64,000 bases of DNA, taken from Escherichia virus TH47. The position numbers and the translations under genes are program-made. The stretch lies in sequence record MT446416.1; one strand, written 5' to 3'. Of this stretch, positions 23,171-63,712 are shown in pieces; positions within the stretch are counted from its first letter, which is position 1, and each line of letters starts with the position of its first letter. Under the pieces are notes generated by a model. The model was not told the origin of the DNA, did not search any database, and saw nothing but the letters and a program-made list of their open reading frames with translations.

Positions 23171-23364
23171 AGTTTACCCGTTATATCTTCAATTAAATAT
23201 GAAATCCAATCCTTGACATACCTTTCCTGAAAGTTAGTTCCAATGAATAGTGCCATAACCAATTCACGCTTATAGGCCATACCACGTTCATGTGACTTAT
23301 ACATTATCATAGCCATGTTATTGATAAGTCTTTCGTGATGTTCTGCTTGAGTTAAAATACGCAT
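23167..23364 (-). CDS. FamB small protein (first gene of the array)
   Basis: motif FIGTNFQER; preceded by 250-bp intergenic region. Confidence 0.55.
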   Translation of the reverse strand: MRILTQAEHHERLINNMAMIMYKSHERGMAYKRELVMALFIGTNFQERYVKDWISYLIEDITGKL

Positions 23365-32833: not shown

Positions 32834-33499
32834 AATTCATTTCCTTAATTAGTGGGGGAAGTTGTTTCCCCTCTCGATGAAAAACATTATACGCCAATTG
32901 AGATAGTTTGCAAGTACTTTTTAAAAATAGTTTTCAGTACTCAATACTTATATAATAGATACACTTATGCACCCGGTGGGCTAGTGAGCTATCTCTCAAT
33001 GAATATATAATAGCAAAATGGCTGACCGAAGTCAACCACTTTTTTCATTTATTTTTTAGCTTTTAGAATCGCCGCCTTTCGCGTCATGCCTTGCTTAATG
33101 TACTCCTTTACTTTCGCTTTACGTGCTTTCGCTTTATTTGCTTTCGTAAATGCCGAACAACTTTTATAGTTTAAACCTGTTGGATTCATTTAAATCACCA
33201 TAAAGAATAGATAGGTTACTAACAACGCCGCGATCAATGCACCGATCACCGCCGAACTGTAATAAGCAAATGATTTCATTTTTTAGCCTGGAAGTAATGT
33301 TTAATTTGTGCGGCGGTCAGTGCACAATTTCGCAGGAAGTTTTCTGTATAACTGCGGCGAGTACTGAAAGAAAATTGACCTTTGCCGTTGCCGATAGTAA
33401 CATCAAACCGAGCGTTGTATTGTTTCATTTTGATTCTCCTTGTATCAGGGAGGAACCATTTCCCCCCCCTCTATGTAAAACATTATACAGTACTGAAAA

Positions 33500-47577: not shown

Positions 47578-47585
47578 TAATAGGT

Positions 47586-47615
47586 CAGTACTGAAATATG
47601 TACTGGTATTTTTTG
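47586..47615 (+). terminator. intrinsic terminator hairpin + T-run
   Basis: CAGTAC-N8-GTACTG followed by TTTTTTG. Confidence 0.55.
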
Positions 47616-47654
47616 TAAATACTATATAATTATTTTAATTTTGGAGATTTAATC

Positions 47655-48824: not shown

Positions 48825-48830
48825 AAAGAA

Positions 48831-48861
48831 AAGCCAGTACTTGATACTGGCTTTTCTTTTT
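48831..48861 (+). terminator. intrinsic terminator (AGCCAGTAC-TTGA-TACTGGCT + T-run)
   Basis: hairpin read directly; same element after copies 3 and 6. Confidence 0.6.
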
Positions 48862-48868
48862 GTATTAA

Positions 48869-48884
48869 ATATAGTATAATGAAT
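48869..48884 (+). promoter_or_regulatory. -10-only promoter-like motif TATAATGAATA (T4-late-like?)
   Basis: TATAAT 48875-48880, ~17 nt upstream of ATG, RBS AAGGAGGG; no good -35. Confidence 0.4.
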
Positions 48885-48897
48885 AAAGGAGGGAATT

Positions 48898-50007
48898 ATG
48901 TTACCTTTTGTTAGAATGTTTGATTACGGGAATATTGCACCTGAAGCTCCAAAGATAAAGAAAGTACTGTGCGGTCGTGATAATTTGTACGTCCTCTATG
49001 GCGATGGCTCACTTTATGGTTGTGGGGATAATGCGTATTTTCAGTTAAACGTTAAAAATGCAGCAACAAGAAATACTTGGATATTAATTTCAGAAGGTGT
49101 TACTGATGTATGGGCTGGGGCGTACAATATTCTTTATCTCAAGGGTGAAGAATTCATAATGCATGGAGTTACCACACAATTAGGCACAGGAGATACTATG
49201 ATTCCGTTGGGTGGTTTGAATGTTACTTCTTCATTTCCACATATATCTAATATTAAAATGATATCAATTGGTGCAGATACAATGCACTACGTTGATGCTA
49301 GTGGTTCGATTGTTTATGGTAGAGGCATGAATGGTAACTATTCACTCGGTGGTGGGTATTCCACGGCTCAGAGTACTTTTGTTTCAGTTATTAATACCGG
49401 AGCTAATACAGTCCTTGATATATTGGGTACACAGAATAACACATTAATATTAACATCAAATGGTGAACTTCTCGGTTGTGGGAGTAGTGGGTATGGTTCA
49501 CTTGGCGTAAGTCCAGGACAGTATACTACACTAGTAAGCAGGTTAACCAGTGTTAAACTGTTTGGTGGTAACAGTACTGGTACTCTTGCTTATTCAGCCA
49601 GCAATATATACAACGCAGGTTGGCAGTATGTTGGTCAACTTGGTAACGGTATTACAACGAACACACTACTATATCCATTTGCATTAAACTCCACTACTAT
49701 TGATAGTAAGATACATAAAATATCAAAATCAAGTACAACTTCACGTGTTAATATGTACGCAACAACCGAAGGAAAGATATATAGTACTGGTGAATTTGGT
49801 AGAAATGGTTCTGGTGGTAGTTTGAGTAGATTCACCAATACACTAACTTTAGATAATTACAACCCAGAAAAATCAGCATTATACACATGTGCAAATTTTA
49901 GTATAGTATTTGATGGTAATAATCAAATTTATGCTTGTGGTTCTTTTTTGTATGTGCCAGGTCCTATTACCACGAACTCATGGTCTGCAATTACAATGCC
50001 GAAATGA
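48898..50007 (+). CDS. RCC1-like repeat protein, FamD copy 3
   Basis: N-term MLPFVRMFDYGN. Confidence 0.8.
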   Translation: MLPFVRMFDYGNIAPEAPKIKKVLCGRDNLYVLYGDGSLYGCGDNAYFQLNVKNAATRNTWILISEGVTDVWAGAYNILYLKGEEFIMHGVTTQLGTGDTMIPLGGLNVTSSFPHISNIKMISIGADTMHYVDASGSIVYGRGMNGNYSLGGGYSTAQSTFVSVINTGANTVLDILGTQNNTLILTSNGELLGCGSSGYGSLGVSPGQYTTLVSRLTSVKLFGGNSTGTLAYSASNIYNAGWQYVGQLGNGITTNTLLYPFALNSTTIDSKIHKISKSSTTSRVNMYATTEGKIYSTGEFGRNGSGGSLSRFTNTLTLDNYNPEKSALYTCANFSIVFDGNNQIYACGSFLYVPGPITTNSWSAITMPK

Positions 50008-50021
50008 TACTATAAAACTAT

Positions 50022-50050
50022 GCCAGTACTTGATACTGGCTTTTCTTTTT
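50022..50050 (+). terminator. intrinsic terminator (GCCAGTAC-TTGA-TACTGGC + T-run)
   Basis: read directly. Confidence 0.6.
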
Positions 50051-50085
50051 GATTAAATATAGTATAAAGAATAAAGGAGGGAATT

Positions 50086-51243
50086 ATGTTACCTTTTGCT
50101 AGAATGGTTAAGTACGGAAATAGAGTTCCAGTACCTGTTGGGATTAAGAAGATAAACTCTGTCGGTACTAGTCAGATGATATTGACGAATACAGGCGACG
50201 TGTATGCATATGGTCAAAACACCAACTGGAGATTTGGTAGTGGTAGTTCTAGTGAGATTAGTGGGGGAGTTCCACAGATGGTAATGCAGGGTGTATCGGA
50301 TATGATATGTCATCCCAGATGTACATTATTAATAATGTCTGATGGACGTTATCTTGCTGCTGGGAACTCTACAGTACTGGGAGGTAGTTCAGGATTGAAT
50401 TATGTAGATGTTAGTTCTAAGTTCGCTACATTAGGAACTATCAAGAAAATTGATTTTACCCGAAGGAACAGTACTTCGTATACAGTATATGCATTAAACA
50501 CTGATGGTGATTTATATGGTATTGGATATGGAAACCGTGGTCAATTGGGGTTAGGTAAAAATAATAGTTTAGGTGCATTTACGAAGATAAACACCAATTG
50601 CAGGAATTTTGTAAGTTGTTCTTATGAGACGATAGTGGCTCTTAAGAATGATAATACTGCGTGGTTCTGTGGAAATTATTCGTTTATTAGTGGTAATACT
50701 GATGTTACTACATTTACTAACCTTGGTGATACTGCAATACTTAATATCTACGGTAATGGTTTAAATGGTGAGTTGTTATACACAAAAAGTGATGGTTTAT
50801 ATTTCCGTGGTTTAGCGTCGAACCGATATGGTTATTCATTCAGTTTAGAACAGCGTGCAATTAATAGCAAGATTACATTGCCGTTTGCTTATGATGTAAG
50901 TACGTTTAAGATTCTCACAGATGAACAGACAACAACCGTCAGTGTGTGGATTTCCAATTCAGACGTTCATTATGGGGTTGGTGCAAATAGCAGTAACACT
51001 AACAGAATGGGATTCACCAACCCAACTATGCCAGGTGCTGGTTCAAACTTTACATTACAGGATTTCAGTTCAGTGCAGGGCACTATTGAGACTGTTGTTA
51101 GTGCAAGTTATTATACAACTCTTATAAACTCTAATGGGAAAGTATTTGGCAGTGGGCCTTTTGATGATGATTCTTTAACTTATTTTCCTGGGAATAATCC
51201 AAAACTGATGAACTACACAGAAATTAAATTGAATATAAATTAG
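50086..51243 (+). CDS. RCC1-like repeat protein, FamD copy 4
   Basis: N-term MLPFARMVKYGN; GYGNRGQLGLGK. Confidence 0.8.
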   Translation: MLPFARMVKYGNRVPVPVGIKKINSVGTSQMILTNTGDVYAYGQNTNWRFGSGSSSEISGGVPQMVMQGVSDMICHPRCTLLIMSDGRYLAAGNSTVLGGSSGLNYVDVSSKFATLGTIKKIDFTRRNSTSYTVYALNTDGDLYGIGYGNRGQLGLGKNNSLGAFTKINTNCRNFVSCSYETIVALKNDNTAWFCGNYSFISGNTDVTTFTNLGDTAILNIYGNGLNGELLYTKSDGLYFRGLASNRYGYSFSLEQRAINSKITLPFAYDVSTFKILTDEQTTTVSVWISNSDVHYGVGANSSNTNRMGFTNPTMPGAGSNFTLQDFSSVQGTIETVVSASYYTTLINSNGKVFGSGPFDDDSLTYFPGNNPKLMNYTEIKLNIN

Positions 51244-51255
51244 GAGAGAATAATT

Positions 51256-52416
51256 ATGTTACCTTTTGCTAGAATGGTTAAGTACGGAAACATTGCACCA
51301 TCCCCTGCTGCCATTAAAAAATTAGTTACCGGATATAACTGGGTTATGGTATTGGGTAGTAATGGTAAATTATATACCCGTGGTGCCAATTCAAGTGGTC
51401 AGTTGGGTTTAGGAGACAATACAGCCAGAACATCATGGACATTAACTGCATCGGATGTCATTGATGTATGGTGTGGTCAGTATGCCACAATGATTCACAA
51501 ATCAGATGGTACATATCAATACACAGGGAAACAATACAATGTGTGTATGGGTACATCATCTGTTAATGCATGGACTTCTATGCAAACTCTTATTAATCAA
51601 GTTAATTCTCAAGGAACAATTACAGAAATATCACTAGGAAATAACTTCATTTCAATACTTATGAGTAATGGGACCATTTGGTGTGGTGGTTATAACACAG
51701 GAGGACAGCTTGGCAATGCTTCTTATTCTAACAGTTTTACTACATTAGTAAAATCAATTATACCAAGTGGTGCGGTTCCGAAAAGGATTATTGCAGGTAT
51801 AAACATGTGTTCATTTATTGCCGAAAGTGGTAGATTATATTACACAGGTGAAGTTAATGGTGATACTAACAGTACTTCAACCGTGAGTTTTTATAATGTA
51901 TTCACATTGTCAGATAGATTACCAGCAACTGTTAGTACTATAGCATTTATAAGTACTGTTAATGATATGGTGCAAGGTATTGCAAGAAACAAAAGCACGT
52001 CAGTTGTTTCAGTGTACACAGGTGGTGATCAATTATATGGACAGGCTGCTACTGGTACTGATACTACAACAAAAATATTGACAACTGTTGTGGCAAATCA
52101 ACCACAAGGAAATATATTAGATATAGGATATGGGTACGGATATTACTCTAACTTTGTTATTACTGACACAGGTGTATACGTTGCTGGTAATAACTCAGCG
52201 ACTTCATACTATGGACAATTAAGTACAGGTTCAACTACTAACGTATTAACTTACACTAAGTCTATTACTCCTGATTTAAATTTCAATGATGTTAAAATCC
52301 AAAGTTGCTATGGTAAAACATATATGACAGATGGAAACAAAATATATTCAAGTGGTACTAACCTAGTATCTGGTGGTACTGCTAGTACTATATTTGTTGA
52401 AGATTCACCAATTTAA
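51256..52416 (+). CDS. RCC1-like repeat protein, FamD copy 5
   Basis: N-term MLPFARMVKYGN; GANSSGQLGLGD, GYNTGGQLGNAS; no terminator between copies 4 and 5. Confidence 0.8.
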   Translation: MLPFARMVKYGNIAPSPAAIKKLVTGYNWVMVLGSNGKLYTRGANSSGQLGLGDNTARTSWTLTASDVIDVWCGQYATMIHKSDGTYQYTGKQYNVCMGTSSVNAWTSMQTLINQVNSQGTITEISLGNNFISILMSNGTIWCGGYNTGGQLGNASYSNSFTTLVKSIIPSGAVPKRIIAGINMCSFIAESGRLYYTGEVNGDTNSTSTVSFYNVFTLSDRLPATVSTIAFISTVNDMVQGIARNKSTSVVSVYTGGDQLYGQAATGTDTTTKILTTVVANQPQGNILDIGYGYGYYSNFVITDTGVYVAGNNSATSYYGQLSTGSTTNVLTYTKSITPDLNFNDVKIQSCYGKTYMTDGNKIYSSGTNLVSGGTASTIFVEDSPI

Positions 52417-52422
52417 AATAAT

Positions 52423-52450
52423 GCCAGTACTCTGTACTGGTATTCTTATT
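52423..52450 (+). terminator. intrinsic terminator hairpin
   Basis: GCCAGTAC-TCT-GTACTGG followed by T-rich tract. Confidence 0.5.
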
Positions 52451-52486
52451 TGTATTAAATATAGTATAATGAATAAAGGAGGAATT

Positions 52487-53623
52487 ATGTTACCTTTTGC
52501 AAGAATGGTTAAGTACGGGAATATAAAAGTAAAGAGTACTATCCAAAAAGTTATCCTTGGTGGTGGTGGTCAATGTGTGGTAACATTACTCAGTGATGGT
52601 AGAGTGTATGGACGTGGTTACAACACTACACATGGGTTAGGTACTGGTACAACAACATTCGTAAGTGATTGGGTATTAATGGGCGATAATATTGTTGATA
52701 TCCATTCAAATGGTGTTCCTGGCACATTCCTTATCACCAAAGAAAATAGAATTTTGTATTCTGGTTGGGCGACACCAATCAATGGTACAACTGCACATTA
52801 TACACGTTTCACTGATTTAACATCAACTGTATTTGCTGCGGTGGATGTTAGTAATATTAAAACAATTACTGGAAATATTAATGCTACAATGGTCCTGTTG
52901 AATGATGGTTCTCTTTATGGTAGTGGTGCAAATACAGGTGTTATTGGTAATGGTAGAAATGTTGCATTATCAACACAAACATATGTAACTAATGATGTGA
53001 GAGAAGTAAAAACATATGGATCCATGACTACTATAACAAAAAATAACAATCAAATACTGGGTAGTGGTCTTTTATACCACGGCGTGAACGGTACAAATTC
53101 AATAATAAACACGTCTTCATATACATTACTGTACACATTACCGAGTTCTGATTGTTTTCAATTTGCATTTGATGAATATACATTTGGATATGTTGACCCT
53201 AGCACTAATACTTCTTATATAAGAGGTATACCAATAAATGGTTCATTGGGTAATGGTGTTACTAATAATACAGCAGTTACAACATGGGTTACTAAAGTTT
53301 GGAATACACCAATTGATAGTTCTATACCTAATAAATCACATACACTTAACCATGTCTCCTTGTTCAATGATGGAAACTTATGGACAACTGGTGCATCTAA
53401 TGTCGGTTATTCCAATGGTACAAATAGCACAACAGCTAATACTTGGACCAGTTCATCTAATTTACCATTCAACACCAATAACATCACAGACTATGCGTTG
53501 GGTAGTAATATTACTGTGGTGGTAATCGACTACAGGTCTATGTACATACTAGCTAACAACTTAATTGCTGGAACTACATCAACCACTTACAAATTTGAGC
53601 CATATAATTCTCCACCAGTTTAA
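52487..53623 (+). CDS. RCC1-like repeat protein, FamD copy 6
   Basis: start MLPFARMVKYGN at 52487 after AAGGAGG; track N-extension from 52373 rejected. Confidence 0.75.
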   Translation: MLPFARMVKYGNIKVKSTIQKVILGGGGQCVVTLLSDGRVYGRGYNTTHGLGTGTTTFVSDWVLMGDNIVDIHSNGVPGTFLITKENRILYSGWATPINGTTAHYTRFTDLTSTVFAAVDVSNIKTITGNINATMVLLNDGSLYGSGANTGVIGNGRNVALSTQTYVTNDVREVKTYGSMTTITKNNNQILGSGLLYHGVNGTNSIINTSSYTLLYTLPSSDCFQFAFDEYTFGYVDPSTNTSYIRGIPINGSLGNGVTNNTAVTTWVTKVWNTPIDSSIPNKSHTLNHVSLFNDGNLWTTGASNVGYSNGTNSTTANTWTSSSNLPFNTNNITDYALGSNITVVVIDYRSMYILANNLIAGTTSTTYKFEPYNSPPV

Positions 53624-53629
53624 TATAAT

Positions 53630-53659
53630 GCCAGTACTTGAGTACTGGCTTTTCTTTTA
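53630..53659. terminator. bidirectional hairpin terminator between convergent genes
   Basis: GCCAGTACTTGAGTACTGGC + TTTTCTTTT. Confidence 0.55.
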
Positions 53660-54307
53660 CATATTATATAATGTGAATGCAGTCACTTTACCAGTTGTTG
53701 TTAGTTCATTATAAAGATACTCCAAGATTCTCGCACACTCTAAGTATATCTCGATATCATCATGAATAAGTGAGTACTGGAATAGCTGTTCTTCAGATAA
53801 TTTGTATTGACTCCCTCTTAATGAATTGAGAATATCTTTCACATCATCAAGTACTGGGTAAAGTACGAAATCTTCATCATATTTTGAAGCAATAAATTCA
53901 AATCCACCACCATCAGTACTAGATATACCAATCAGTACTTTATCAATCAAGTTAATGTTTATATAACGGTTGTGATTTGGGTGAATTGAAATCTCAAACA
54001 TACGAGTACTGTTACAATCAACATCAATATACAAATATACATCATTGAATTTATAAGTTAAGCAACCATACTCAATGTAATCAGAGCAAATAATTGATGA
54101 ATTTTTTCTCGTCTCTGCGTAATGCATATTGATATTCTTTTTACGCATAAGTAATTCGAACTTTGCACTAAACTTACCACCAGTAAGATAATTAGTATTA
54201 GGACGTTTGTAACTGGCAACTGGCCTATGGGATGATGAAAAGTATCTTTTTGTGAATCGTTTCTGTTTAGTGAAATATTCTTGATAGAACTTATTTCTTT
54301 TATTCAT
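53657..54307 (-). CDS. hypothetical protein, paralog of 44068-44739, with FamA C-terminal module
   Basis: motif SEEQLFQYSLIHDDIEIY; start MNKRNKFYQEYF at 54305-54307 after GAGG. Confidence 0.5.
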   Translation of the reverse strand: MNKRNKFYQEYFTKQKRFTKRYFSSSHRPVASYKRPNTNYLTGGKFSAKFELLMRKKNINMHYAETRKNSSIICSDYIEYGCLTYKFNDVYLYIDVDCNSTRMFEISIHPNHNRYININLIDKVLIGISSTDGGGFEFIASKYDEDFVLYPVLDDVKDILNSLRGSQYKLSEEQLFQYSLIHDDIEIYLECARILEYLYNELTTTGKVTAFTLYNM

Positions 54308-54385
54308 GAGTGCCTCAATTAAATTGCTGTAAAATTGTACGTTATAAAATGAGTAAATAAAGTATAACACAAGGAGATTTTTATT

Positions 54386-55510
54386 ATGTTACCTTTCGTA
54401 TTGTTATTTGATTATGGGAACGAAAAACAAGAAAGTTCTTATGATGTTAGTGTATATGGAAACAATAACTACATTTTAAATAAACAAACTGGAAACCTTT
54501 TTGCATCTGGTGCTGCGGCATTTATGGGTGATAACACCGTTAAGTATTATATTACCCAAATCGAATCAAATGTTCATAGCTGTGAGATAGGCTTCCTATC
54601 ATCATGGATAATTAAGAAGGACAAAACTGTTTTCATTTTAGGAAACAAAAGTTCAATTGGTCTAACCGATTCGACCACATCATGGTTTGAAATTACAAAT
54701 TTATTTTCTGCTGTTCCTGAAATATGGGACAACCTATTTGAATGTAAAGTTCAATTGGGATATAACTGCATACGTGTTATGACACCACTAGGTTCAATCT
54801 ATGCGATTGGCACAAACACTTATGGTGCATTGGGTACTGGTACTACATCCTCATCAACTTCGTTCGTTAAAAGTGGTGCTGTGGATGCTGTACGCATGGA
54901 ATCAACTGAACGTTCAGTTTTCTATCAAAACAGTTCTGGAAAATGGTTTGGATGTGGTGATAACACATATGGTATACTAGGTCTAGGAACTACCGCCAGT
55001 CGTGTAAACTCATACACCGCACCAGTATGGACTAATGCAGAAGCTGTTAGCTTCTCTAACCGTGGTATCATATACAGCCTCAATGGTACTCTATACTCAT
55101 GTGGTGACAAAGTTAATGGTCAGCTAGGGGATGGATATACACAAAGCATAGACGCTGCCAGGAGCACACCATACACCATAGGAACCGCATTCCAAATTGG
55201 TAAGGCAATAACATCAGCTACACAAGCATCAGCCAACGTATTCATTGGTAAAGATAATAAGTTCTATGGTACTGGTAGTATTGCTGCTGGTATAAATGGT
55301 AGTGCTAGTGCTACATTAAGTAAAGTTACTGCGTTATCAGCATCACTACCACCTGACATTACATACAATGATATTATAACATTTAATACAGGGACCGTAA
55401 CTTTTATTCAAGCAAAAGGACAACTATATTATGTTGGTAGAAGAACTTACATAGATAATAGTTCAGACGTTACCACACAGTTCAGTTTAATTGGTGGCTT
55501 AGATAATTAA
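54386..55510 (+). CDS. RCC1-like repeat protein, FamD copy 7 (most divergent)
   Basis: N-term MLPFVLLFDYGN; GTNTYGALGTGT, GDNTYGILGLGT, GDKVNGQLGDGY. Confidence 0.8.
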   Translation: MLPFVLLFDYGNEKQESSYDVSVYGNNNYILNKQTGNLFASGAAAFMGDNTVKYYITQIESNVHSCEIGFLSSWIIKKDKTVFILGNKSSIGLTDSTTSWFEITNLFSAVPEIWDNLFECKVQLGYNCIRVMTPLGSIYAIGTNTYGALGTGTTSSSTSFVKSGAVDAVRMESTERSVFYQNSSGKWFGCGDNTYGILGLGTTASRVNSYTAPVWTNAEAVSFSNRGIIYSLNGTLYSCGDKVNGQLGDGYTQSIDAARSTPYTIGTAFQIGKAITSATQASANVFIGKDNKFYGTGSIAAGINGSASATLSKVTALSASLPPDITYNDIITFNTGTVTFIQAKGQLYYVGRRTYIDNSSDVTTQFSLIGGLDN

Positions 55511-55515
55511 AATTA

Positions 55516-55547
55516 ATCCAGTACTATAATAGTACTGGATTTTTTAT
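55516..55547. terminator. bidirectional hairpin terminator
   Basis: ATCCAGTACTATAATAGTACTGGAT + TTTTTT between convergent genes. Confidence 0.6.
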
Positions 55548-55918
55548 TATAACATACGTTTTTTACGAATAGTATTGTGGATATTTTTTAAGTAGTTCAC
55601 ACCTTTACACAACCCATAAAATACACCAGCACATACACCAAATACAGGTATCATACATGCAAACATCGTTATCAATTCCCACATCTCCATGCCATCTTGA
55701 TTCGGTCCAAGGTCAAAGATAACAACCGAAACCAAACCTGTGATACTTAGCATATAATATGCCATGAAGATAAAAAAAGAAACAATACCAACATCAGAGC
55801 GAACTGAATTTAGCATATTATATACTGGGGTTACACAGAAGTAATACAATAACCAAACCAAAGAGCCTAAACTAAACACAATAATAGTAATGATCGAAAA
55901 TATTTCACGATAACTCAT
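55547..55918 (-). CDS. FamE small multi-TM membrane protein
   Basis: 123 aa, several hydrophobic helices; last of seven tandem paralogs. Confidence 0.6.
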   Translation of the reverse strand: MSYREIFSIITIIVFSLGSLVWLLYYFCVTPVYNMLNSVRSDVGIVSFFIFMAYYMLSITGLVSVVIFDLGPNQDGMEMWELITMFACMIPVFGVCAGVFYGLCKGVNYLKNIHNTIRKKRML

Positions 55919-55919
55919 T

Positions 55920-56282
55920 TTAGTTCCTCTTACCTAAACGCTCATGGATTTCGGAAATCTTATTATACATCCACGCCATCAACTCAACGGATGCACAGAG
56001 AATAACCACACACAGTGTTAGTGAACATACCATAATACCAAATGTTATAAAATTCAAACTCGATGTTAATAATGCAACCAGCATTAGAATAAAACCAAAA
56101 TTGAATGCTGTACTCAACACAGTATATGCTGGACTATATCTCCTTTGTATTACATCATATATATTTGATAATGGTCGCTTATGGAAGTACTTCCCAATGC
56201 ACACGAATGCATTCAGTGAGAAGATAAATGTATACGCCATTACCATTAATTGACCAATAAAAGATAATTCAATATTATTCAT
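55920..56282 (-). CDS. FamE small membrane protein
   Basis: 120 aa, hydrophobic. Confidence 0.6.
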   Translation of the reverse strand: MNNIELSFIGQLMVMAYTFIFSLNAFVCIGKYFHKRPLSNIYDVIQRRYSPAYTVLSTAFNFGFILMLVALLTSSLNFITFGIMVCSLTLCVVILCASVELMAWMYNKISEIHERLGKRN

Positions 56283-56283
56283 G

Positions 56284-56655
56284 TTATCCTCGTTTGCGGT
56301 ATTTGATGCTTTGGTGCATTCTCTGAAAATGTGGAACTAATACATATTGTACGGTTTGCCAAATTACCATCAGATTATGGACAGCACCACCGAGTAGACC
56401 AAACATTAGACAGATAATTACCAGTACTGGATCACCATCTACCATACCCCATTTGAATATATGTAAAATCCATACAGTGATAAGTAGTAATAAACTAATC
56501 CAATACGTAGTAAAAAATCCCGCATGTAATTCATAATCATCAGCAATTTCATCGTATACGGTTTCCAAGAAGGATACACAGAAGAACTTGCCAATAATAA
56601 CAATTGTACTAATAAACAACATAGCAGTTAATATAATAAGTGCAATTTCCATCAC
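56284..56655 (-). CDS. FamE small membrane protein
   Basis: 123 aa, hydrophobic. Confidence 0.6.
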   Translation of the reverse strand: MMEIALIILTAMLFISTIVIIGKFFCVSFLETVYDEIADDYELHAGFFTTYWISLLLLITVWILHIFKWGMVDGDPVLVIICLMFGLLGGAVHNLMVIWQTVQYVLVPHFQRMHQSIKYRKRG

Positions 56656-56966
56656 ATCCCTCGTTTACGCTTTTGATTGCGTCTAAATTCGGTTAGCCCA
56701 CGAATAATCGGTGGCATCAGACTACATAAAAAAATAACAGTTGTTGGCAATAACATGAAGTCAATCATTGCTGTATTAACAGGTGGATCACATACCAAAT
56801 AATACAAACACGTAATACTAATTATGGTTGACCCAATAAAAAGAATACAAAATTCTTTTATCTGTTTTTCAACATAATCAAACATCTTCAATACAAATAA
56901 AAATCCAACCCAACACATAATAAAATAGAATGAATACAACGTGTAAATCAATGTTACGATATCCAT
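56652..56966 (-). CDS. FamE small membrane protein
   Basis: 104 aa; ATGA overlap. Confidence 0.6.
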   Translation of the reverse strand: MDIVTLIYTLYSFYFIMCWVGFLFVLKMFDYVEKQIKEFCILFIGSTIISITCLYYLVCDPPVNTAMIDFMLLPTTVIFLCSLMPPIIRGLTEFRRNQKRKRGM

Positions 56967-57304
56967 TAGTACCTCGCATCAGGAACTTTAGAACGCAATT
57001 TATGAACGGCTGGGATCAACAACAAACTTACATATGCAATAGTTGAACCCCAATAGAATACTAATATAATTGGTTCACCATTAGAACGTAAACCTCTACT
57101 AATCATTGAGTAGTGAATAATAGGCATAAACATCGCCATAAAAAACCATGCGTGTAATTTTAATTGCAGCATGTTATCAGAGATGAATACTGAAATTGGT
57201 CGTTTAAAGAACCACATCAGAAAGTAGAACCCAGCACTAACAATATAGTACATAGTACTAACTTTCATATACCACGGCATTAAGTGTAAAAAATATTCCA
57301 TCAT
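56966..57304 (-). CDS. FamE small membrane protein
   Basis: 112 aa. Confidence 0.6.
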   Translation of the reverse strand: MMEYFLHLMPWYMKVSTMYYIVSAGFYFLMWFFKRPISVFISDNMLQLKLHAWFFMAMFMPIIHYSMISRGLRSNGEPIILVFYWGSTIAYVSLLLIPAVHKLRSKVPDARY

Positions 57305-57648
57305 TCCTCCGGTATCTTGTTTCGAAGTTCAATCATAACACAACAAAGTTTAATGAACAAGTAAAAAACTACACATATCATACCTATGGTTCCATAAACG
57401 ACTGAAAAAGCTGGTAGTGCTTTTCCGGCGAGAACAGCCACAACACATGCTATAAATGTTGATGCAAACAATGATTGATTAATGAAAGAATTCATAAAAT
57501 CTTCACCATTACGCTTATAGAATTGTCGTTTAAAATACCATCCTAGAAACATAACTACCCAAAATGTTACATAACCTGTTAGAATAATCCCTGCAATTGA
57601 ATGTGCAACAGAACTACTCTTTAAAAACTCAAGATAAGATTCAAACAT
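57301..57648 (-). CDS. FamE small membrane protein
   Basis: 115 aa; ATGA overlap. Confidence 0.6.
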   Translation of the reverse strand: MFESYLEFLKSSSVAHSIAGIILTGYVTFWVVMFLGWYFKRQFYKRNGEDFMNSFINQSLFASTFIACVVAVLAGKALPAFSVVYGTIGMICVVFYLFIKLCCVMIELRNKIPEE

Positions 57649-57986
57649 TAGAAGTCCCCACGAATTTTTGCTCTACCATTAATGATGAGATTAAACAAGT
57701 ATATCAGCACCCAAATTAGTAATCCAAGGAATACAATATATTGTGATATTGAGTTCAACTGTGGATTAGCACAATAAATTAAGTGTGCGATAAGACCAAC
57801 AATTGCAAACATACCTTGGATAATAGTGAAAAGAAGTAGTGAAATGTTTCCATCAGGATACAGTTTGAAAACGATTTTCTTTTTAAAATACCATAGTACT
57901 ACAACTAGTGCATGATAAAAGAAAAAACCAAACAGATAAATCAAAGTAATACTAAGCATTGTATCTGAATTAAAAAACTCAAGCAT
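57648..57986 (-). CDS. FamE small membrane protein
   Basis: 112 aa; first of seven. Confidence 0.6.
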   Translation of the reverse strand: MLEFFNSDTMLSITLIYLFGFFFYHALVVVLWYFKKKIVFKLYPDGNISLLLFTIIQGMFAIVGLIAHLIYCANPQLNSISQYIVFLGLLIWVLIYLFNLIINGRAKIRGDF

Positions 57987-58053
57987 ATCGTATCTCCGGT
58001 GGTGAATATTAAGTTATAGTACTACACTATGGTAGTACTGTCAATACATGTAA

Positions 58054-58824
58054 TTAAATTTTCTCAAGGAACAAGTTTTCGCACTGCTCTTCCCAATCAT
58101 ACGGGTTGTTGTTGTATACTGCTGAAATCAACAGAGGCATACGCAGTGAAGGAGCACGAAGTGCATCTTCATGTTTCAGCATCCAATTCAGGATTGCTTT
58201 GCTACCATTACTATTAACACCTTTAGTTGACAGGATGTTGGTCTTGTTCATTACGTTTTCAATGTGAATCATGATATCGCTTTTAGTCTGGATCTGTAAG
58301 TCAACATACACAGAGCGAGACATAAGAGCAGCATAGTGAGCAGACATTTTGGTTTTAGCTTTAGCATTCAGTGCTAAATCTTTGTTAGTAATGAATACGA
58401 TACGACCGTTAAAATCAAAGCTGTTAGGGATACCGTTGGTAGTTAAGTACTTAGAGCTAGTCATGTAAGACACAGTACGTTTACCGCTGTCCAGTACTGC
58501 TTTGAGCAGGTTCATACCGTCTTCTGAATCAAAGATGCTGTCCATATCATCCAGTACTAATACGTTAGTGCTGTGACGATTCTTGTACAGAACTTCATAC
58601 AGAGCAAGAGTAGTCATCTTACCACTGATAGTAACTACGTTCCATTCTGCTGCGTCATGAGCTTTCTGGAGGCGTTGTGACAGGGTGTAAGTCTTACCAA
58701 CACCAGGTGCACCGCTGACAACCATACTTTTTACAGTACTGCTATCATCGAGCAAACACTCAAGAGCAACCATCATGGAGTTGAAGTTTTTCTGGATTTG
58801 AATGCTACGTGCTTCTCTGGTCAT
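58054..58824 (-). CDS. P-loop NTPase (AAA-type ATPase-like)
   Basis: Walker A VVSGAPGVGKTYT, Walker B-like VLVLDDMD. Confidence 0.65.
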   Translation of the reverse strand: MTREARSIQIQKNFNSMMVALECLLDDSSTVKSMVVSGAPGVGKTYTLSQRLQKAHDAAEWNVVTISGKMTTLALYEVLYKNRHSTNVLVLDDMDSIFDSEDGMNLLKAVLDSGKRTVSYMTSSKYLTTNGIPNSFDFNGRIVFITNKDLALNAKAKTKMSAHYAALMSRSVYVDLQIQTKSDIMIHIENVMNKTNILSTKGVNSNGSKAILNWMLKHEDALRAPSLRMPLLISAVYNNNPYDWEEQCENLFLEKI

Positions 58825-58865
58825 TTCGTTATCCTCATCAGTTGATGAAATAATTATAGCAAAAA

Positions 58866-58885
58866 GGGCTGACCGAAGTCAACCC
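58866..58885 (-). terminator. terminator-promoter cassette: UUCG-tetraloop hairpin + T-run with -35 (TTGAC) inside the stem and TGcTATAAT -10
   Basis: minus strand reads GGGTTGACTTCGGTCAGCCCTTTTTGCTATAAT; repeated at 60313-60331, 61118-61137, 61701-61719, 63286-63305, 33019-33040. Confidence 0.6.
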
Positions 58886-58895
58886 TTTTGTATTG

Positions 58896-60044
58896 TTATT
58901 TCTTGTCTAAGATTTGTACTTCACCATAAATCTGTACGATTTGCTTTTCTGGATTACCTTCGATAAGTTTTAGAAAAGATTTCAGTACTGCAACGTGGTC
59001 TTCATAGTATGCAATCCTAATGAAGTTGTAACCGTTGTTGATGGCGTACTCAGTTTTTATTGCGTCTTTTATCTTTCTTTGTTCAAAAGCACTTTTGCCG
59101 CCCCATAATTTGATTGATTGAAAATGTTGTACTCCATCATATTCCAGAAGGATTCGTTTACTTTCAATAAATCGATCAAAAGGTAATGGCTTTTTGAACT
59201 TACAATCAATGAAGCGTTTCTCTTTTATGGTATCATCTTCTAACATACCATCAATATCAACTAAATTCTTACTCTCACCTGATGAACAGGTAGGACATGA
59301 AGACTCAGATGATATATAGTTATGATATGATGGATAAAATGGGTTATTACAATCATTACACTGTAAATGTAATTTTGTTTTTGATGTTTCATAAACACCT
59401 CCCACAAATCCAATAAAGGTATTATTACAAACTGCGTTTCTTTTATCTATTTCATATTTGACTACTAGAATATTCAAACGAATCTTTTTTGCCGAGCTGT
59501 AATCACGACATTCAACACAATTATGACCATTAAGAAAATCATAAATGTTCTCACATAAACGAGTATGGTTGTTTTTACATTTGTACCAAAATTTAGATTT
59601 GAATTTTGTAGTAAATTCACCTTCAAATTTGATAAATGTAATAGATTCACGTTTACACTCTTTTTGTATTTCTTTTAATGCATCAGATTCAGATATTTTG
59701 ATAGTGTTTTGGTACTCTTTTCTTTTCTTCTTACCACATATCTGACATCCACCAGAGATAAGATAACTTTTCAGTGAACTTGTACATAAAGTGCTGCATG
59801 TTCCACATCTAAACAGAACTTTATTCTTTTCTAGTCCAAAAAATTGATTACTGTTTGATATCTGTAAGCCAAAAATAGTATCTTCTTTTTCAATGGCTTT
59901 TAGTTTAATTTCATCAATTCTAACGATAGTTTTTTTATTTTTTACAGGAACATTTTCTATTTTCATGTACTCAAATTTAGTACATAATTCTTCAATAATA
60001 TAAACTTTCTCACCATCTTCATTTAAATAGTACTTTTCAAACAT
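58896..60044 (-). CDS. zinc-ribbon repeat protein with C-terminal endonuclease-like domain (homing-endonuclease-like)
   Basis: three Cx2C...Cx2C repeats; C-terminal EYDGVQHF...IRIAY resembles PD-(D/E)xK / Vsr-like endonuclease. Confidence 0.5.
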   Translation of the reverse strand: MFEKYYLNEDGEKVYIIEELCTKFEYMKIENVPVKNKKTIVRIDEIKLKAIEKEDTIFGLQISNSNQFFGLEKNKVLFRCGTCSTLCTSSLKSYLISGGCQICGKKKRKEYQNTIKISESDALKEIQKECKRESITFIKFEGEFTTKFKSKFWYKCKNNHTRLCENIYDFLNGHNCVECRDYSSAKKIRLNILVVKYEIDKRNAVCNNTFIGFVGGVYETSKTKLHLQCNDCNNPFYPSYHNYISSESSCPTCSSGESKNLVDIDGMLEDDTIKEKRFIDCKFKKPLPFDRFIESKRILLEYDGVQHFQSIKLWGGKSAFEQRKIKDAIKTEYAINNGYNFIRIAYYEDHVAVLKSFLKLIEGNPEKQIVQIYGEVQILDKK

Positions 60045-60060
60045 TACTCAATACTCCTTT

Positions 60061-60273
60061 TCAGTACTGAACCCGTCCAGCACCATTAATCTTAGCCTGA
60101 ATCTTATCTTTTTCGACAAGACCTTCTTTGTAATCGATGGACGTATTATCGCACTGAATTACATCTAAGTCAAGTACTTCTTGTGTACTTAATGAAGTAT
60201 TGTCTGCAATTTGTTGTAAAGTAATGATATCAGTACCGAAGAATTCTGCTAAACGTATAAAAGATAATTTCAT
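60061..60273 (-). CDS. hypothetical small protein
   Basis: 70 aa; AAGAGG RBS. Confidence 0.45.
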   Translation of the reverse strand: MKLSFIRLAEFFGTDIITLQQIADNTSLSTQEVLDLDVIQCDNTSIDYKEGLVEKDKIQAKINGAGRVQY

Positions 60274-60325
60274 GTGTTACCTCTTAAGTTGATGAAATAA
60301 TTATAGCAAAAAGGGCCGACCGAAG

Positions 60326-60595
60326 TCAACCATGTTTGAAAGGATTTTTTAATGGTTTTAGTACTGTATGTATTCTGCTGTGTAGTTCTTCTTCCCACAA
60401 AACATTTACATTATAAACTAAATCATTGTAATCACTGTACTCAAATATAAAATCATACTTTTCATCAAAAGTATGAGAAATCAATTTCATTTTCATCAGT
60501 ACAATAGAACTTTTAAATTTATATGTTTCTTTTTCTTCTCCGGTTTTTGAGATTGGTATATTTTTTACAAATTCTTTGAATTCATCATCAGTCAT
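60326..60595 (-). CDS. hypothetical protein
   Basis: 89 aa. Confidence 0.4.
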   Translation of the reverse strand: MTDDEFKEFVKNIPISKTGEEKETYKFKSSIVLMKMKLISHTFDEKYDFIFEYSDYNDLVYNVNVLWEEELHSRIHTVLKPLKNPFKHG

Positions 60596-60613
60596 AGTTT
60601 AACCATATATTAT

Positions 60614-60835
60614 TTAACCAGTATTAGTCCCAATATAGTCACTCCATAAATTATATATATTGTTTTCAACACAATCATCATCGCTTAATTCTATCATTGA
60701 TGATATAAGTACTGATACGGTTTGTGTGTTCAAATCGGTATCGCGATGTTTCAACCACCATTTCAGGGTGAGGGTGAGTGTTCGTGCTGTGTTTGGATTA
60801 TTTGTAAATTTATATCTGGTGGTATCGAGAATCAT
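60614..60835 (-). CDS. hypothetical small protein
   Basis: 73 aa. Confidence 0.4.
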   Translation of the reverse strand: MILDTTRYKFTNNPNTARTLTLTLKWWLKHRDTDLNTQTVSVLISSMIELSDDDCVENNIYNLWSDYIGTNTG

Positions 60836-60883
60836 TTTAAATCTTCTTTCATTTAATTATATAAACAAAGTACTCATGTAATT

Positions 60884-61081
60884 TTAATTACTTTTGTATA
60901 TTGAATCACATTGTCTACTCAATAGTTTATAGTATGCTTTACCACGAGGAAATAGTTTACGTGTATGTTCTCCTTTTCCCCACGGTCCTAAATATGTTTT
61001 ACGCGTGTCATGATTATTAAAGTTCTTTGATACAGTTGATTTTGTACCAATAGGATCTTTCTTACTAAAATAGATAGACAT
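60884..61081 (-). CDS. hypothetical small protein
   Basis: 65 aa. Confidence 0.4.
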   Translation of the reverse strand: MSIYFSKKDPIGTKSTVSKNFNNHDTRKTYLGPWGKGEHTRKLFPRGKAYYKLLSRQCDSIYKSN

Positions 61082-61143
61082 TATAAAGTTTTCTCTTTAC
61101 TAAGTTTATGTATTAACGGACTGACCGAAGTCAACCCTTTCCT

Positions 61144-61659
61144 TTAATAATTATTCATTTCATCTTTGATTTGTTCTTCAATTTCGTCGAACATATCAGT
61201 ACTAGATTCTATATTACTACTTACGTCCTGCATATCTTTAACGTACTGTGGGCGTTCAACGTCAGTAAATTTATACCACTTAGGCTTCATCTGGAGCTTC
61301 TCAATCAAACGCTCACGAGACATTTTAATCTCTGACTCCGATGGTACGTAGTCATTACAAAACTCAGCAGGGAAGCCGCTAATGTCGTTTACTTCAGTGT
61401 TTTGAATCTTCATACCACGACGCAAACATTCATTAACAATATCAATATGACGCTTCTGTAAGTACAATAACTTGTTGTAGAAGAATGTTACATGACCTGA
61501 ACCTAACAGGTAAGTACTGTTAATTTTGAAATCACGGACTCGCTTACGTGCTTGAACATGTTTTTGTACAGCACCAAACACACGTGGGAGTTCACGATAT
61601 TCAGCCATCAGATGTTGGTCAGCAAGTTCTTTAACGTGTACTAAGTTAATGCGTGTCAT
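61144..61659 (-). CDS. denV: pyrimidine-dimer DNA glycosylase / endonuclease V
   Basis: [30 protein letters not shown]...KRVRDFKI...GHVTFFY closely matches phage T4 endonuclease V as recalled; longer C-terminal acidic tail. Confidence 0.85.
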
Positions 61660-61728
61660 GTATTCATCCTCTCGTTTCGATGAAATGATTATAGCAAAAA
61701 GGGCTGACCGAAGTCAACCTTTTTCTTA

Positions 61729-63243
61729 TTATTGTTTTACCCCGCCCCACTTTTCATAGATTGCAATAATCTTATACAAGTTTGTGATGTTAGTTGTTTC
61801 CGTGTAACCATCTTTCATTTCATTTTTGGTAAGTACACCTTTACCAAAAATCCTCTTACACTCCTGTTCTGCTGACCTACAACTTTTGGGAGTGCTGAAA
61901 TGATAATACAACATTGAAGAAACTTTATATATACATTTATTGTCTTGGTGCTTCTGGCGGCGACCATGAACCTTTTCAATTCCATATTTCAATGCAATAG
62001 GTAACTCACCATCATAGATCACATGAATGTATGCAAATTGTTGATTATGATTAGAACATTCGGGGCAACCGGAACCACCAAGGTGAGCATTTGGAGTTAT
62101 TTTGAACTCACCATGTTCGCTACATTCAACCTTAACTAATTTATGTGCATTCACATAATTCGTTTTAGGATATGTGTACTTCCCATTATGTACTTTAGAT
62201 GCCTTTTCAATAAATTCAGGTGTACTAGAACGTTCACATCCTGAACATTTAGAACAACCATTTTTTTCATGTAGATGGTGTGTTGGTTGCTGCGTGAACA
62301 CACCATGTTCTTTACAAACAATCGATACTTTAGTTTTTAAGTTTTTATATTTAACTAAAGAATAATCATATTTGTCTCCATGTATTTCATGTGCTTTTTT
62401 GATGAACGTTTCGGTAGTTAACGCCATCTTTCCACTACACTCTAAACAACCATTGCCAGCCACATGTTTACTGGCAAGTTGCTCAAAATCACCATGTTCT
62501 GGACATGTAATTATAACTTTTCCACGTCCATTTATATAGATAGTTTTATCATATGAATATTTGTCACCGTGAACTTCTTTACATTTTTTGATGAAATCCG
62601 GGGTGTCTTTATATCTATACGTACCACTACATTTAGCACATTTAAAACCACTTAGGTGGTTTGCTGGGGTTTGTTCAAAATCACCATGTTCTTTGCATGT
62701 TATTGTAACTTTGGTTTTTGAGTTGATGTACACAACTTTATCGTATGTGTACTCAAAATTATGTTTAACATTTGCCTTCATGATAAAGTGCTCATTCGTA
62801 GAAACTCTTCCCAAGTGTACAATTGAACCGTCTTTATTCATCTTAGTGCATAAATTACATCCACGTTTTTTTCTTAAATGATCACTAACTCTTTTCTCAA
62901 AATCACCATGTTCTGGACATGTTATAATTACTCTAGAAGAATTAGAAACATCATCTTGTACCTTATCATAAAGGTACACATCACCAAAAATAGCACGAGA
63001 CTGTTCGATGAATTTAGCTTTACCCTTTCGAAAGTGTAGTCCATTTTTTGTATATCTACATTTTTTGCAGCCAGATGACCGTAAATGAGTTCCAGCAATT
63101 TGTTCGAACTCACCATGTTCTGGACATGTAATAATCACTGAGGTTCTTGAATTAACATAAACCACTTTAGTATAATCGTACTTAAAATTATGCAATTTAT
63201 TCGCTTGTTTTACAAACTCTTCTTTATTCATTGCGACTGGCAT
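61729..63243 (-). CDS. multi-zinc-ribbon protein (6-7 tandem CxEHGxF...HL...GCxxC repeats), possible nuclease
   Basis: repeats ITCPEHGEFEQ...; C-terminal VIY-N9-YGI...RR loosely GIY-YIG-like (weak); start MPVAMNKEE with same upstream context as denV. Confidence 0.5.
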   Translation of the reverse strand: MPVAMNKEEFVKQANKLHNFKYDYTKVVYVNSRTSVIITCPEHGEFEQIAGTHLRSSGCKKCRYTKNGLHFRKGKAKFIEQSRAIFGDVYLYDKVQDDVSNSSRVIITCPEHGDFEKRVSDHLRKKRGCNLCTKMNKDGSIVHLGRVSTNEHFIMKANVKHNFEYTYDKVVYINSKTKVTITCKEHGDFEQTPANHLSGFKCAKCSGTYRYKDTPDFIKKCKEVHGDKYSYDKTIYINGRGKVIITCPEHGDFEQLASKHVAGNGCLECSGKMALTTETFIKKAHEIHGDKYDYSLVKYKNLKTKVSIVCKEHGVFTQQPTHHLHEKNGCSKCSGCERSSTPEFIEKASKVHNGKYTYPKTNYVNAHKLVKVECSEHGEFKITPNAHLGGSGCPECSNHNQQFAYIHVIYDGELPIALKYGIEKVHGRRQKHQDNKCIYKVSSMLYYHFSTPKSCRSAEQECKRIFGKGVLTKNEMKDGYTETTNITNLYKIIAIYEKWGGVKQ

Positions 63244-63298
63244 TGTATTCATCCTCTCGTCTTGATGAAATAATTATAGCAAAAAGGGCTGACCGAAG

Positions 63299-63712
63299 TC
63301 AACCCTTTTTTCTTTCAATCAAACATAGTCTACCAGAATGTACCATGCGATGGTGATTAGAACAAAGAATCATACACTTTCGAATTTCATCTTTGATAGA
63401 TTCTCGACTTTTACTGAACATAGAACTTGGTGTATGTTCTTTGGTATTAGGATCAAGATGGTGAAAGTCTAAACATTCTGGATACTTCATCATACAAATA
63501 CTACAACCATAAAATGATTTAACTCTGGTCATGAAATCTTTATTTTTTCTTTTGATTTCTTCAAGTTTTTTGACCTCAGTTTTTTTATTTCTGGTTTTCT
63601 TACTGGTAATATTTCTACAATCGTTGCATGTATTTCTATGTTTCCCAGTATCACTTCTTATACCAAATTCACTAATGTTTTTTTCAATATTACATGTAAT
63701 ACACTTCTTCAT
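63299..63712 (-). CDS. HNH endonuclease
   Basis: Cys pairs plus DFHHLDPNTKEH...CSNHHRMVH HNH motif. Confidence 0.65.
   Translation of the reverse strand: MKKCITCNIEKNISEFGIRSDTGKHRNTCNDCRNITSKKTRNKKTEVKKLEEIKRKNKDFMTRVKSFYGCSICMMKYPECLDFHHLDPNTKEHTPSSMFSKSRESIKDEIRKCMILCSNHHRMVHSGRLCLIERKKG

Follow-up and report, generated by a model that had tools for sequence, protein, structure and literature searches.

A NrdC.10-type ATPase gene and seven paralogous three-helix membrane protein genes form a predicted early operon beside a putative mobile nuclease cassette in Escherichia virus TH47

Introduction

The locus described here lies on the minus strand of a 64,000-nucleotide stretch of Escherichia virus TH47 (MT446416.1; hereafter the window) and consists of a nuclease gene, an ATPase gene and seven small membrane protein genes, which we call M1 to M7. 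Two kinds of phage protein offer a comparison for M1-M7. The T4 protein Imm has two transmembrane (TM) segments and is encoded by a single-copy gene. Class I holins, of the lambda S105 type, are characterized by a length of about 100-125 amino acids (aa), three TM segments, an N-out/C-in topology and a strongly basic cytoplasmic C-terminus, and the M proteins share this description by prediction. For the ATPase, the gene to consider is nrdC.10 of the T-even phages. Its product is described as a conserved hypothetical protein of 36.7 kDa and a predicted AAA ATPase, and the sole paper that we found gives only a weak or marginal AAA match (PMC1524935). A composite EDxHD motif marks a family of Vsr-like homing endonucleases that includes I-Bth0305I (PMC3239194). 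Finally, the borders of small gene cassettes in T4-type phages carry PeSLs, elements that combine a sigma-70 promoter with a stem-loop (PMC2839356, PMC4122927).

The locus resembles each of these systems in part. The window ATPase aligns with T4/T2 NrdC.10 over nearly its full length, falls in the same PHROG family and, as in those phages, sits in a region of small early genes, but it lacks the first ~75 residues of T4 NrdC.10, and T2 has no array of three-TM proteins alongside. Like EDxHD and T4-type homing endonucleases, the nuclease combines DNA-binding and nuclease parts and occurs sporadically among close relatives, and its C-terminal domain resembles Vsr/DUF559, with DUF559 below threshold. 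Whereas I-Bth0305I has NUMOD motifs, the free-standing window nuclease has three predicted DUF4379 treble-clef zinc fingers. The M proteins share with T4 Imm and Sp a small size, predicted early expression, a predicted place in the inner membrane and an origin in a large lytic myovirus. This is a functional analogy only, as the window family shows no sequence similarity to Imm, has three TM segments and comprises 7-10 paralogs. Like PeSLs, the promoter-hairpin elements of the window are repeated at cassette borders and coincide with recombination breakpoints, and these breakpoints suggest a role for the elements in shuffling. Unlike PeSLs, they have a phage-group-specific sequence and carry the -35 hexamer inside a UUCG-capped stem. 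Among known defence and abortive-infection systems, PADLOC returned no match for the nuclease or the M proteins.

Results

Two independent units

The region holds two independent units, a nuclease cassette and an operon of the ATPase gene with M1-M7 (Table 1), and not one system. All nine minus-strand open reading frames (ORFs) of the preliminary description appear in the ORF list at the coordinates it gave. Its grouping of nuclease, ATPase and membrane genes as one module is not borne out, the nuclease lacking a counterpart in nine of 14 related loci and the ATPase being widespread without the array. The description was right to see a zinc-finger, endonuclease-like gene and mistaken in placing it in the ATPase/M operon, from which a promoter-hairpin element separates it. 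Across 55000-61000 the window matches the Asteriusvirus jumbo coliphages vB_Ec-M-J, WPEC5, Turkey3 and BF17 at 94-98% nucleotide identity, with coverage by any one record reaching at most 73%; the genome group is that of the RaK2-like myoviruses, of 350-380 kb.

The sequence between the nuclease stop codon (58896) and the ATPase start codon (58824) is AAAGGGTTGACTTCGGTCAGCCCTTTTTGCTATAAT. It contains a hairpin with an 8-bp G+C-rich stem, extended to 12 bp by flanking A-U pairs, a UUCG loop and a T-run thereafter; the stem includes the -35 hexamer TTGACT, and downstream comes an extended -10, TGCTATAAT. The element is ~50 nt long and folds as RNA with -17.6 kcal/mol (z -5.7), and the promoter within it (58853-58882) matches the sigma-70 consensus at 11 of 12 positions, with the extended -10 in addition. 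The element that opens the nuclease cassette has an exact TTGACT-18-TATAAT promoter, again with an extended -10, and a GGTTGAC-TTCG-GTCGGCC hairpin. On the minus strand of the window the exact promoter pattern occurs four times, against 0.11 expected by chance, and the hairpin occurs six times in the window, against 0 expected; the copies can be aligned over ~50 nt.

The six hairpin sites, all on the minus strand, are at 33020-33037, 58867-58884, 60314-60331, 61119-61136, 61702-61719 and 63287-63304. The composite repeat runs from an A-run through a GGTTGAC-UUCG-GTCAGCC hairpin holding the -35 hexamer and a T-run to the extended -10 (TGCTATAAT); the -10 is missing from the copy ending at 61136. 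The repeat is found at the borders of cassettes and at recombination breakpoints.

The seven membrane protein genes are as tightly coupled as first described: neighbours either overlap by 1-4 nt or are separated by 1 nt. Each of the seven has a Shine-Dalgarno-like sequence in front of it, and we regard them as translationally coupled. The intrinsic terminator, with a 12-bp stem (-15.6 kcal/mol, z -6.8), begins 6 nt past M7. We infer that the ATPase gene and M1-M7 form one operon that extends from the promoter at 58853-58882 to this terminator. We predict it to be early, because its promoter fits the sigma-70 consensus and because the homologous genes of phage CBB, CBB_538-546, lie inside a region that is predicted to be early and is rich in RpoD-like promoters (PMC5259590). 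A further promoter-like sequence precedes M1 (Table 1). The hairpin between the ATPase gene and M1 was considered as a second PeSL and rejected, since its fold is not significant (z -1.05), which leaves only the weak promoter-like match at that position.

Table 1. Features of the nuclease cassette and the ATPase/M1-M7 operon (positions in the window)
Feature	Position	Strand	Basis or remark
Promoter-hairpin (PeSL-like) element	60300..60331	-	opens the cassette with the 70-aa ORF and the nuclease
70-aa ORF upstream of the nuclease	60061..60273	-	ORF call, conserved in relatives
Free-standing homing endonuclease (predicted)	58896..60044	-	DUF4379, PHROG and tblastn matches
Promoter-hairpin element with two predicted roles, terminator (nuclease cassette) and sigma-70-type promoter (ATPase operon)	58853..58884	-	sequence, fold, homology breaks
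AAA+ ATPase (predicted), T4 NrdC.10 family, short form	58054..58824	-	Walker motifs, PHROG 1250
Possible internal promoter before M1, weak evidence	58016..58044	-	TTGACA-17-TACTAT, 10/12
M1, 112 aa, 3-TM, subfamily B	57648..57986	-	
M2, 115 aa, 3-TM, subfamily G	57301..57648	-	
M3, 112 aa, 3-TM, subfamily D	56966..57304	-	
M4, 104 aa, 3-TM, subfamily C	56652..56966	-	
M5, 122-123 aa, 3-TM, subfamily A	56284..56655	-	
M6, 120 aa, 3-TM, subfamily A (BLAST cluster of M5)	55920..56282	-	
M7, 123 aa, 3-TM, subfamily E	55547..55918	-	modelled with AF2
Bidirectional intrinsic terminator between M7 and a convergent RCC1-like gene	55515..55541	both	

The nuclease as a predicted mobile homing endonuclease

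The nuclease is a 382-aa protein with three CxxC...CxxC modules. It matches the treble-clef zinc finger family DUF4379 above the Pfam cut-off (E 9e-6), and its C-terminal domain matches DUF559/Vsr weakly (E 0.063, below the cut-off); the residues LLEYDGVQH...D fit the composite EDxHD motif, by inspection only. Its PHROG matches are 559 (4.7e-39), 681 (6.2e-29) and 9084, 'homing endonuclease' (7.9e-17). The relatives found by tblastn are genes of Staphylococcus, Lactococcus, Streptococcus and Bacillus phages that are labelled HNH, VSR or group-I-intron homing endonucleases, with genes annotated as VSR homing endonucleases at E 3e-10 and 1e-7. No phage record reached 80% coverage of the protein in this search, and a sequence search of the PDB gave no match.

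The distribution of the gene has the signature of mobility, namely presence/absence polymorphism among close relatives with sharp boundaries. The five related loci that do have a counterpart show partial matches (38-49% identity over 20-58% of the length). Homology with WPEC5, A4, PBECO4 and ph0011 ends at 58887-58897 and, where it resumes, does so at 59989-60042. In ph0011, denV stands directly upstream of the ATPase gene; in RaK2 and Munch there is no endonuclease upstream of it. The 70-aa ORF of the same cassette is 96-99% identical in vB_Ec-M-J, WPEC5, PBECO4 and A4 and has no Pfam match.

Two other endonuclease-like genes lie nearby on the minus strand, so that three selfish-type nucleases are found within 5 kb. 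The ORF at 61729-63252 encodes 507 aa with repeated DUF4379/DUF723/zinc-ribbon modules, and the one at 63299-63712 encodes a Cys/His-rich protein of 137 aa, for which relatives have a counterpart with the annotation HNH endonuclease. Beside both lies denV (61144-61659). Because of these neighbouring endonuclease genes and the variable content upstream of the ATPase gene, we regard the interval as a hot spot for selfish endonuclease genes.

By PHROG matches, tblastn relatives and distribution, then, the gene is predicted to be an ordinary free-standing homing endonuclease, selfish and mobile, in a cassette bounded by promoter-hairpin elements. Landing in an insertion hot spot is its only connection with the genes downstream.

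These results bear directly on the proposal that nuclease, ATPase and membrane proteins act as one exclusion, abortive-infection or anti-defence system. The genes are adjacent and on the same strand in this genome, and the conserved early promoter would be consistent with an early protective function, but the nuclease is mobile, lies in a separate cassette and, in most relatives, is missing or has something else in its place, and a terminator-promoter element stands between it and the ATPase gene. PADLOC finds nothing beyond weak P-loop similarity, and the ATPase is a conserved NrdC.10 phage gene that occurs in 1309 records. A three-part defence module fails because the nuclease is an unrelated selfish gene in a cassette of its own, and we consider such a system highly improbable.

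M1-M7 are paralogs with a conserved face predicted to be cytoplasmic

The M1-M7 proteins are 104-123 aa long, and each has three hydrophobic segments and a basic C-terminus; TM1 and TM2 of M3 are less hydrophobic than those of the other members. The preliminary description took them for multi-TM paralogs, and iterative profile searches agree. These replaced pairwise BLAST, which is too weak as proof of paralogy (M1-M2, E 7e-4; all other pairs above 0.009). Each M protein was used as a jackhmmer query against the small ORFs downstream of the ATPase gene in related phages, with reversed and shuffled decoys mixed in, and every query recovered all seven window proteins, 56-73 of the 78 array proteins of relatives and no decoy. 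Across the whole window, a family hidden Markov model (HMM) detects seven members and no more. The ratio of nonsynonymous to synonymous substitution rates (dN/dS) of the M genes is 0.10-0.42 against PBECO4 and ph0011, and that of the ATPase gene is 0.05 against PBECO4. The M genes are thus under purifying selection, and gene-wide positive selection is not seen at informative divergence. The jackhmmer recovery, the HMM count and the dN/dS values together establish that M1-M7 are real, coding and paralogous.

Averaged over 99 family members, lysine plus arginine residues number 0.3 at the N-terminus, 2.7 in loop 1, 0.55 in loop 2 and 4.7 in the C-terminal tail, and from this distribution we predict an N-out/C-in topology with three TM helices. 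The AlphaFold2 (AF2) model of M7 (mean predicted local distance difference test, pLDDT, 86) has helices at residues 3-26, 30-38, 42-66 and 79-122, in agreement with the prediction, and its TM3 continues straight into a basic cytoplasmic helix. The well-conserved columns of the family are G24, K25, F26 and F27 at the end of TM1, Y36 and D37 in loop 1, and H114, I117, K120 and R121 in the tail. All of them lie on the predicted cytoplasmic side and none elsewhere; in TM2, the periplasmic loop and TM3, hydrophobicity alone is conserved.

A profile search of 1.84 billion representative proteins gave 65 family matches, none of them fused to another domain. Apart from a 99-aa partial match and a 56-aa fragment, all of them have a length of 99-138 aa and match from one end to the other. 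From a set of 5.8 billion proteins came 31 matches, of which the named ones are Asteriusvirus-type phage proteins (A4, JNE01, UE-S1, ph0011, PBECO4) or one hypothetical protein of Escherichia coli, and the rest are metagenomic. Searches of Pfam, NCBIfam and PADLOC with the M proteins returned nothing significant, and neither Pfam nor PHROGs gave a match to immunity (Imm) families. In PHROGs the M proteins are spread over seven separate families of unknown function with faint cross-matches. A fold search of BFVD returned only family members at a probability of at least 0.98, and another fold search with the M model returned only generic helix bundles. Our literature search found no paper on the family, the GAP32 annotation already notes '3 transmembrane domains' for its genes, and the CBB paper mentions 22 unspecified paralogous ORFs (PMC5259590). 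The family is thus undescribed as such, within the class of small early membrane proteins of large phages. Composition, topology prediction and model all suggest inner-membrane proteins with three TM helices, and the searches point to a family confined to RaK2-like phages.

Could M1-M7 be holins and antiholins of class I type that control membrane permeabilisation? Their predicted size, three TM segments, N-out/C-in topology and charged C-terminus match the class description, and M3 and M5 begin with Met-Met (for M5, the annotation of relatives uses the ATG one codon further in). In addition, the CBB genome paper never uses the word 'holin' (0 occurrences), and the CBB endolysin has an N-terminal TM domain (PMC5259590). 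Against this, the M proteins show no homology to any holin or spanin family in Pfam or PHROGs, and the one holin in the BFVD search, at E 9.7, is noise. Their promoter is of the early sigma-70 type and not of the late ATAAATA type described for the clade, and the endolysin gene of the clade, CBB_187, lies elsewhere in the genome (PMC5259590). No lysis cassette is nearby: the neighbours are the ATPase and RCC1-like genes, with no endolysin or spanin among them. Holins in up to 11 copies, plus a second array, would also be unprecedented. We therefore judge a holin role very unlikely. The lack of homology to holin and spanin families leaves room for an early role of the M proteins in the membrane, which may be one in superinfection exclusion.

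A conserved AAA+ ATPase of the NrdC.10 family

The ATPase has the clear Walker motifs of the preliminary description, Walker A GAPGVGKT at residues 38-45 and Walker B VLVLDD at 88-93, and both are invariant in an alignment of 50 homologs (G38, G41, G43, K44, D92 and D93), as are N147, R170 and R228. It has the features expected of an AAA+ fold, an alpha/beta core, a helical lid and conserved sensor-1, arginine-finger and sensor-2 positions, and its confident AF2 model (pLDDT 93) shows nothing beyond a plain AAA+ module and its helical lid. The protein matches PHROG 1250, of unknown function, at 1.5e-102 and is 38% identical to T2 NrdC.10 (E 3e-57, residues 9-249 against 79-317).

Searched by tblastn, the ATPase matches 1309 phage records, among them T-even phages (with the annotation NrdC.10), Vibrio phages of Ackermannviridae type, T4-like phages of Acinetobacter and Aeromonas, and jumbo phages; the annotations of RaK2 and GAP32 already label it nrdC.10-like. 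Sequence searches of the PDB gave P-loop-level matches only, and PADLOC gave two weak matches at that level (E 4.5e-4 and 8e-3). From the 1309 records, the orthology to NrdC.10 and the P-loop-level matches in PADLOC, we conclude that the ATPase is a conserved phage gene and not a defence component. On its motifs, model and alignment it is assigned as an AAA+ ortholog of T4 NrdC.10, which may hydrolyse ATP and oligomerise.

Distribution and mosaic evolution of the ATPase and the array

We compared loci of Asteriusvirus (nine genomes besides the window), Alcyoneusvirus RaK2, the Mimasvirus phages GAP32, CBB and XbC2, Salmonella phage Munch and Erwinia phage Hallingskeid. In 15 of 15 RaK2-like loci the ATPase gene is followed by a same-strand array of 3-11 family genes, and the flanks of this pair differ between genera. 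No family member stands beside the ATPase in five loci that are not RaK2-like (T2, Vibrio BX-1, Pseudomonas Callisto and two metagenomic contigs). The idea that short-form ATPases always come with an array was rejected, as the two metagenomic loci, which have the short form, and the PA5oct-like Callisto have none.

By BLAST clustering, the order of subfamilies is B-G-D-C-A-A-E in the window, B-G-D-C-C-A-A-E in Turkey5 and O-O-B-D-C-A-E in RaK2, and it is colinear between Asteriusvirus and RaK2. The Mimasvirus arrays consist of their own F/J/L subfamilies and contain a 254-aa non-membrane insert. The M proteins have diverged much faster than the ATPase: against RaK2, they are 24-40% identical and the ATPase is 70% identical.

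Within Asteriusvirus the two parts of the locus have separate histories. In WPEC3 and ph0011 the ATPase is 59% identical to that of the window, with synonymous divergence (dS) saturated, beside M genes that are 77-100% identical. The reverse is seen in A4, where an ATPase of 96% identity stands beside M genes of 27-64%, with the breakpoint at 58052, the ATPase stop codon. Moreover, dS varies several-fold among adjacent M genes. The locus is therefore mosaic, and ATPase and array recombine independently.

The genus has two deeply diverged ATPase alleles, 95.5-100% and 54-59% identical in amino acids to that of the window, the latter with dS saturated (window compared with loci L001, L016 and L004), and they are flanked by near-identical DNA. 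The window allele resembles the second Asteriusvirus allele less than it does that of the Klebsiella phage RaK2 (70%). The split may stem from co-conversion driven by the neighbouring endonuclease genes.

Further genes accompany the family in relatives (positions are those within the numbered loci that we compared). The insert of the Mimasvirus arrays is a conserved 254-262-aa non-membrane protein without a Pfam match (GAP32, L008 7479-8243; also in CBB and XbC2). In five of 14 related loci the array ends with a related C-terminal protein of one BLAST cluster (GAP32, L008 10064-10687, also CBB and XbC2; RaK2, L006 10054-10650; A4, L007 9465-10016), which has a predicted TM segment in four of the five copies and in GAP32 matches DUF1190 (E 6e-36). 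Neither protein occurs in the window. Some relatives have a second group of three-TM family genes ~6 kb upstream of the ATPase gene and adjoining no ATPase, in a position that would fall just past the end of the window. It has three members in WPEC3 (L001 13405-14440 / L018 975-2010), with the C-termini LRDKMPNR, LRDNLPER and WRNKIPEK, two in PBECO4 (L014 59-1109) and one in A4 (L007 1338-1691). A link to phage phi92, suggested by 'Phi92_gp231/233/234' notes in the ph0011 annotation, was rejected, as the phi92 genes are unrelated small ORFs. Hallingskeid also has, upstream of its ATPase and array, a separate gene of 91 aa with the annotation 'superinfection immunity protein' (L012 634-909), so that an Imm-type gene other than the three-TM family may already be present in the clade.

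The constancy of the pair raises the question of whether ATPase and M proteins form one ATP-driven device, in which an AAA+ oligomer would dock through the basic cytoplasmic tails on a three-TM hetero-oligomer, for example for extracting or remodelling host membrane proteins or for gating a channel. We rank this second, after an early role in membrane takeover or exclusion, and hold it to be unlikely. The two parts share one promoter, remain adjacent in all 15 RaK2-like loci amid variable flanks, and have distinct subfamilies retained in the same order under purifying selection; the residues conserved family-wide all face the cytoplasm, and the RaK2-like ATPases as a group lack the N-terminal ~75 aa of T4 NrdC.10. 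A dedicated machine is harder to reconcile with the natural swaps of ATPase or array in WPEC3, ph0011 and A4, with the wide occurrence of the ATPase family, including other short forms of 260-273 aa, where the M family is missing, and with three further family members ~6 kb from the ATPase in relatives. A copy number of 3-11 also fits a fixed stoichiometry poorly. Probably the ATPase has a conserved early function of its own and is no obligate partner of the array.

A variant of this idea makes the three-TM paralogs interchangeable adaptors, in which the conserved face would recruit a ring of the NrdC.10-type ATPase to the inner membrane and the variable TM part of each paralog would pick a different host membrane protein for extraction or remodelling. 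We think it improbable. If true, it would mean a modular ATP-driven system for remodelling membrane proteins and a first function for the NrdC.10 family.

The same comparisons bear on an anti-defence role, in which each M paralog would inhibit one host TM target, a membrane-embedded defence effector or another membrane protein. This overlaps the reading that we favour and differs from it in the target only. In keeping with it are the predicted early expression, TM regions that diversified while the scaffold stayed conserved, a copy number that varies between host genera and an evolution faster than that of the neighbouring genes. Yet the M proteins have no homology to any known anti-defence protein, and their subfamilies are colinear between Escherichia coli phages and the Klebsiella phage RaK2, where host-specific targets would predict more turnover. 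We consider it distinctly unlikely.

Other features of the window

Convergent with the M operon, seven consecutive plus-strand ORFs of 369-416 aa (46456-55510) make up a second large paralog array, and relatives label the copies that lie in the compared loci as RCC1 / regulator of chromosome condensation (ATS1 superfamily). On the minus strand, 17659-23364 holds at least 23 tandem overlapping ORFs of ~65-92 aa that form one BLAST cluster with a common LGTN.QE motif, a stretch that possibly reaches ~42000. From 18 to 42 kb there is hardly any ORF above 120 aa, the GC content is raised (0.35-0.40) and the AT skew is strong; the counterparts in relatives are 24-29 hypothetical proteins in a row. 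The vB_Ec-M-J match to the small-ORF stretch overlaps a feature named Direct Terminal Repeats.

Discussion

We favour an account in which the region consists of two units and M1-M7 have an early role directed at the inner membrane, in host takeover or superinfection exclusion. Taken as a whole, this account has in our judgement a little better than an even chance of being right; any particular target of the M proteins is much less likely. Host RNA polymerase would transcribe the ATPase-M1-M7 operon soon after infection, and the seven M proteins would insert into the host inner membrane. Their common working surface would be the cytoplasmic face, with G-[K/W]-[F/Y]-F at the end of TM1, Y-D in loop 1 and a [H/R]-x-K-I-x-x-K-R helix that runs off TM3, while each paralog would have a membrane target of its own through its TM and periplasmic parts, which are not conserved. 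The net effect would be an inner membrane re-purposed or sealed for the phage, either for takeover or for the exclusion of superinfecting DNA. The early timing, the membrane insertion and the biological role proposed here are conditional on the promoter, topology and conservation evidence set out above.

Several observations weigh against this account. A fixed assembly of several subunits would explain the constant order of distinct subfamilies and the purifying selection on them no worse than independently acting blockers would. Values of dN/dS near or above 1, as in an arms race, appear only in very close comparisons with a handful of substitutions. The ATPase gene always adjoins the array while the flanks vary, and this could point to a functional link to which the account gives little weight. 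Early expression is deduced from the promoter consensus and a prediction in a related phage, and a literature search for RNA sequencing of an enterobacterial RaK2-like phage found none.

Nothing mechanistically surprising has been demonstrated so far. The analysis does improve the annotation of these genomes, as it splits a predicted selfish nuclease from a conserved operon and unites in one family genes that are now scattered over seven PHROGs or labelled 'hypothetical'. Some of the relatives have been isolated and studied as candidates for phage therapy or biocontrol. The natural recombinants between ATPase and array offer material on whether both parts work together, and the family itself, compact and confined to one clade, with 3-11 members at the site per genome and always beside a NrdC.10-type ATPase, is a defined target for experiments.

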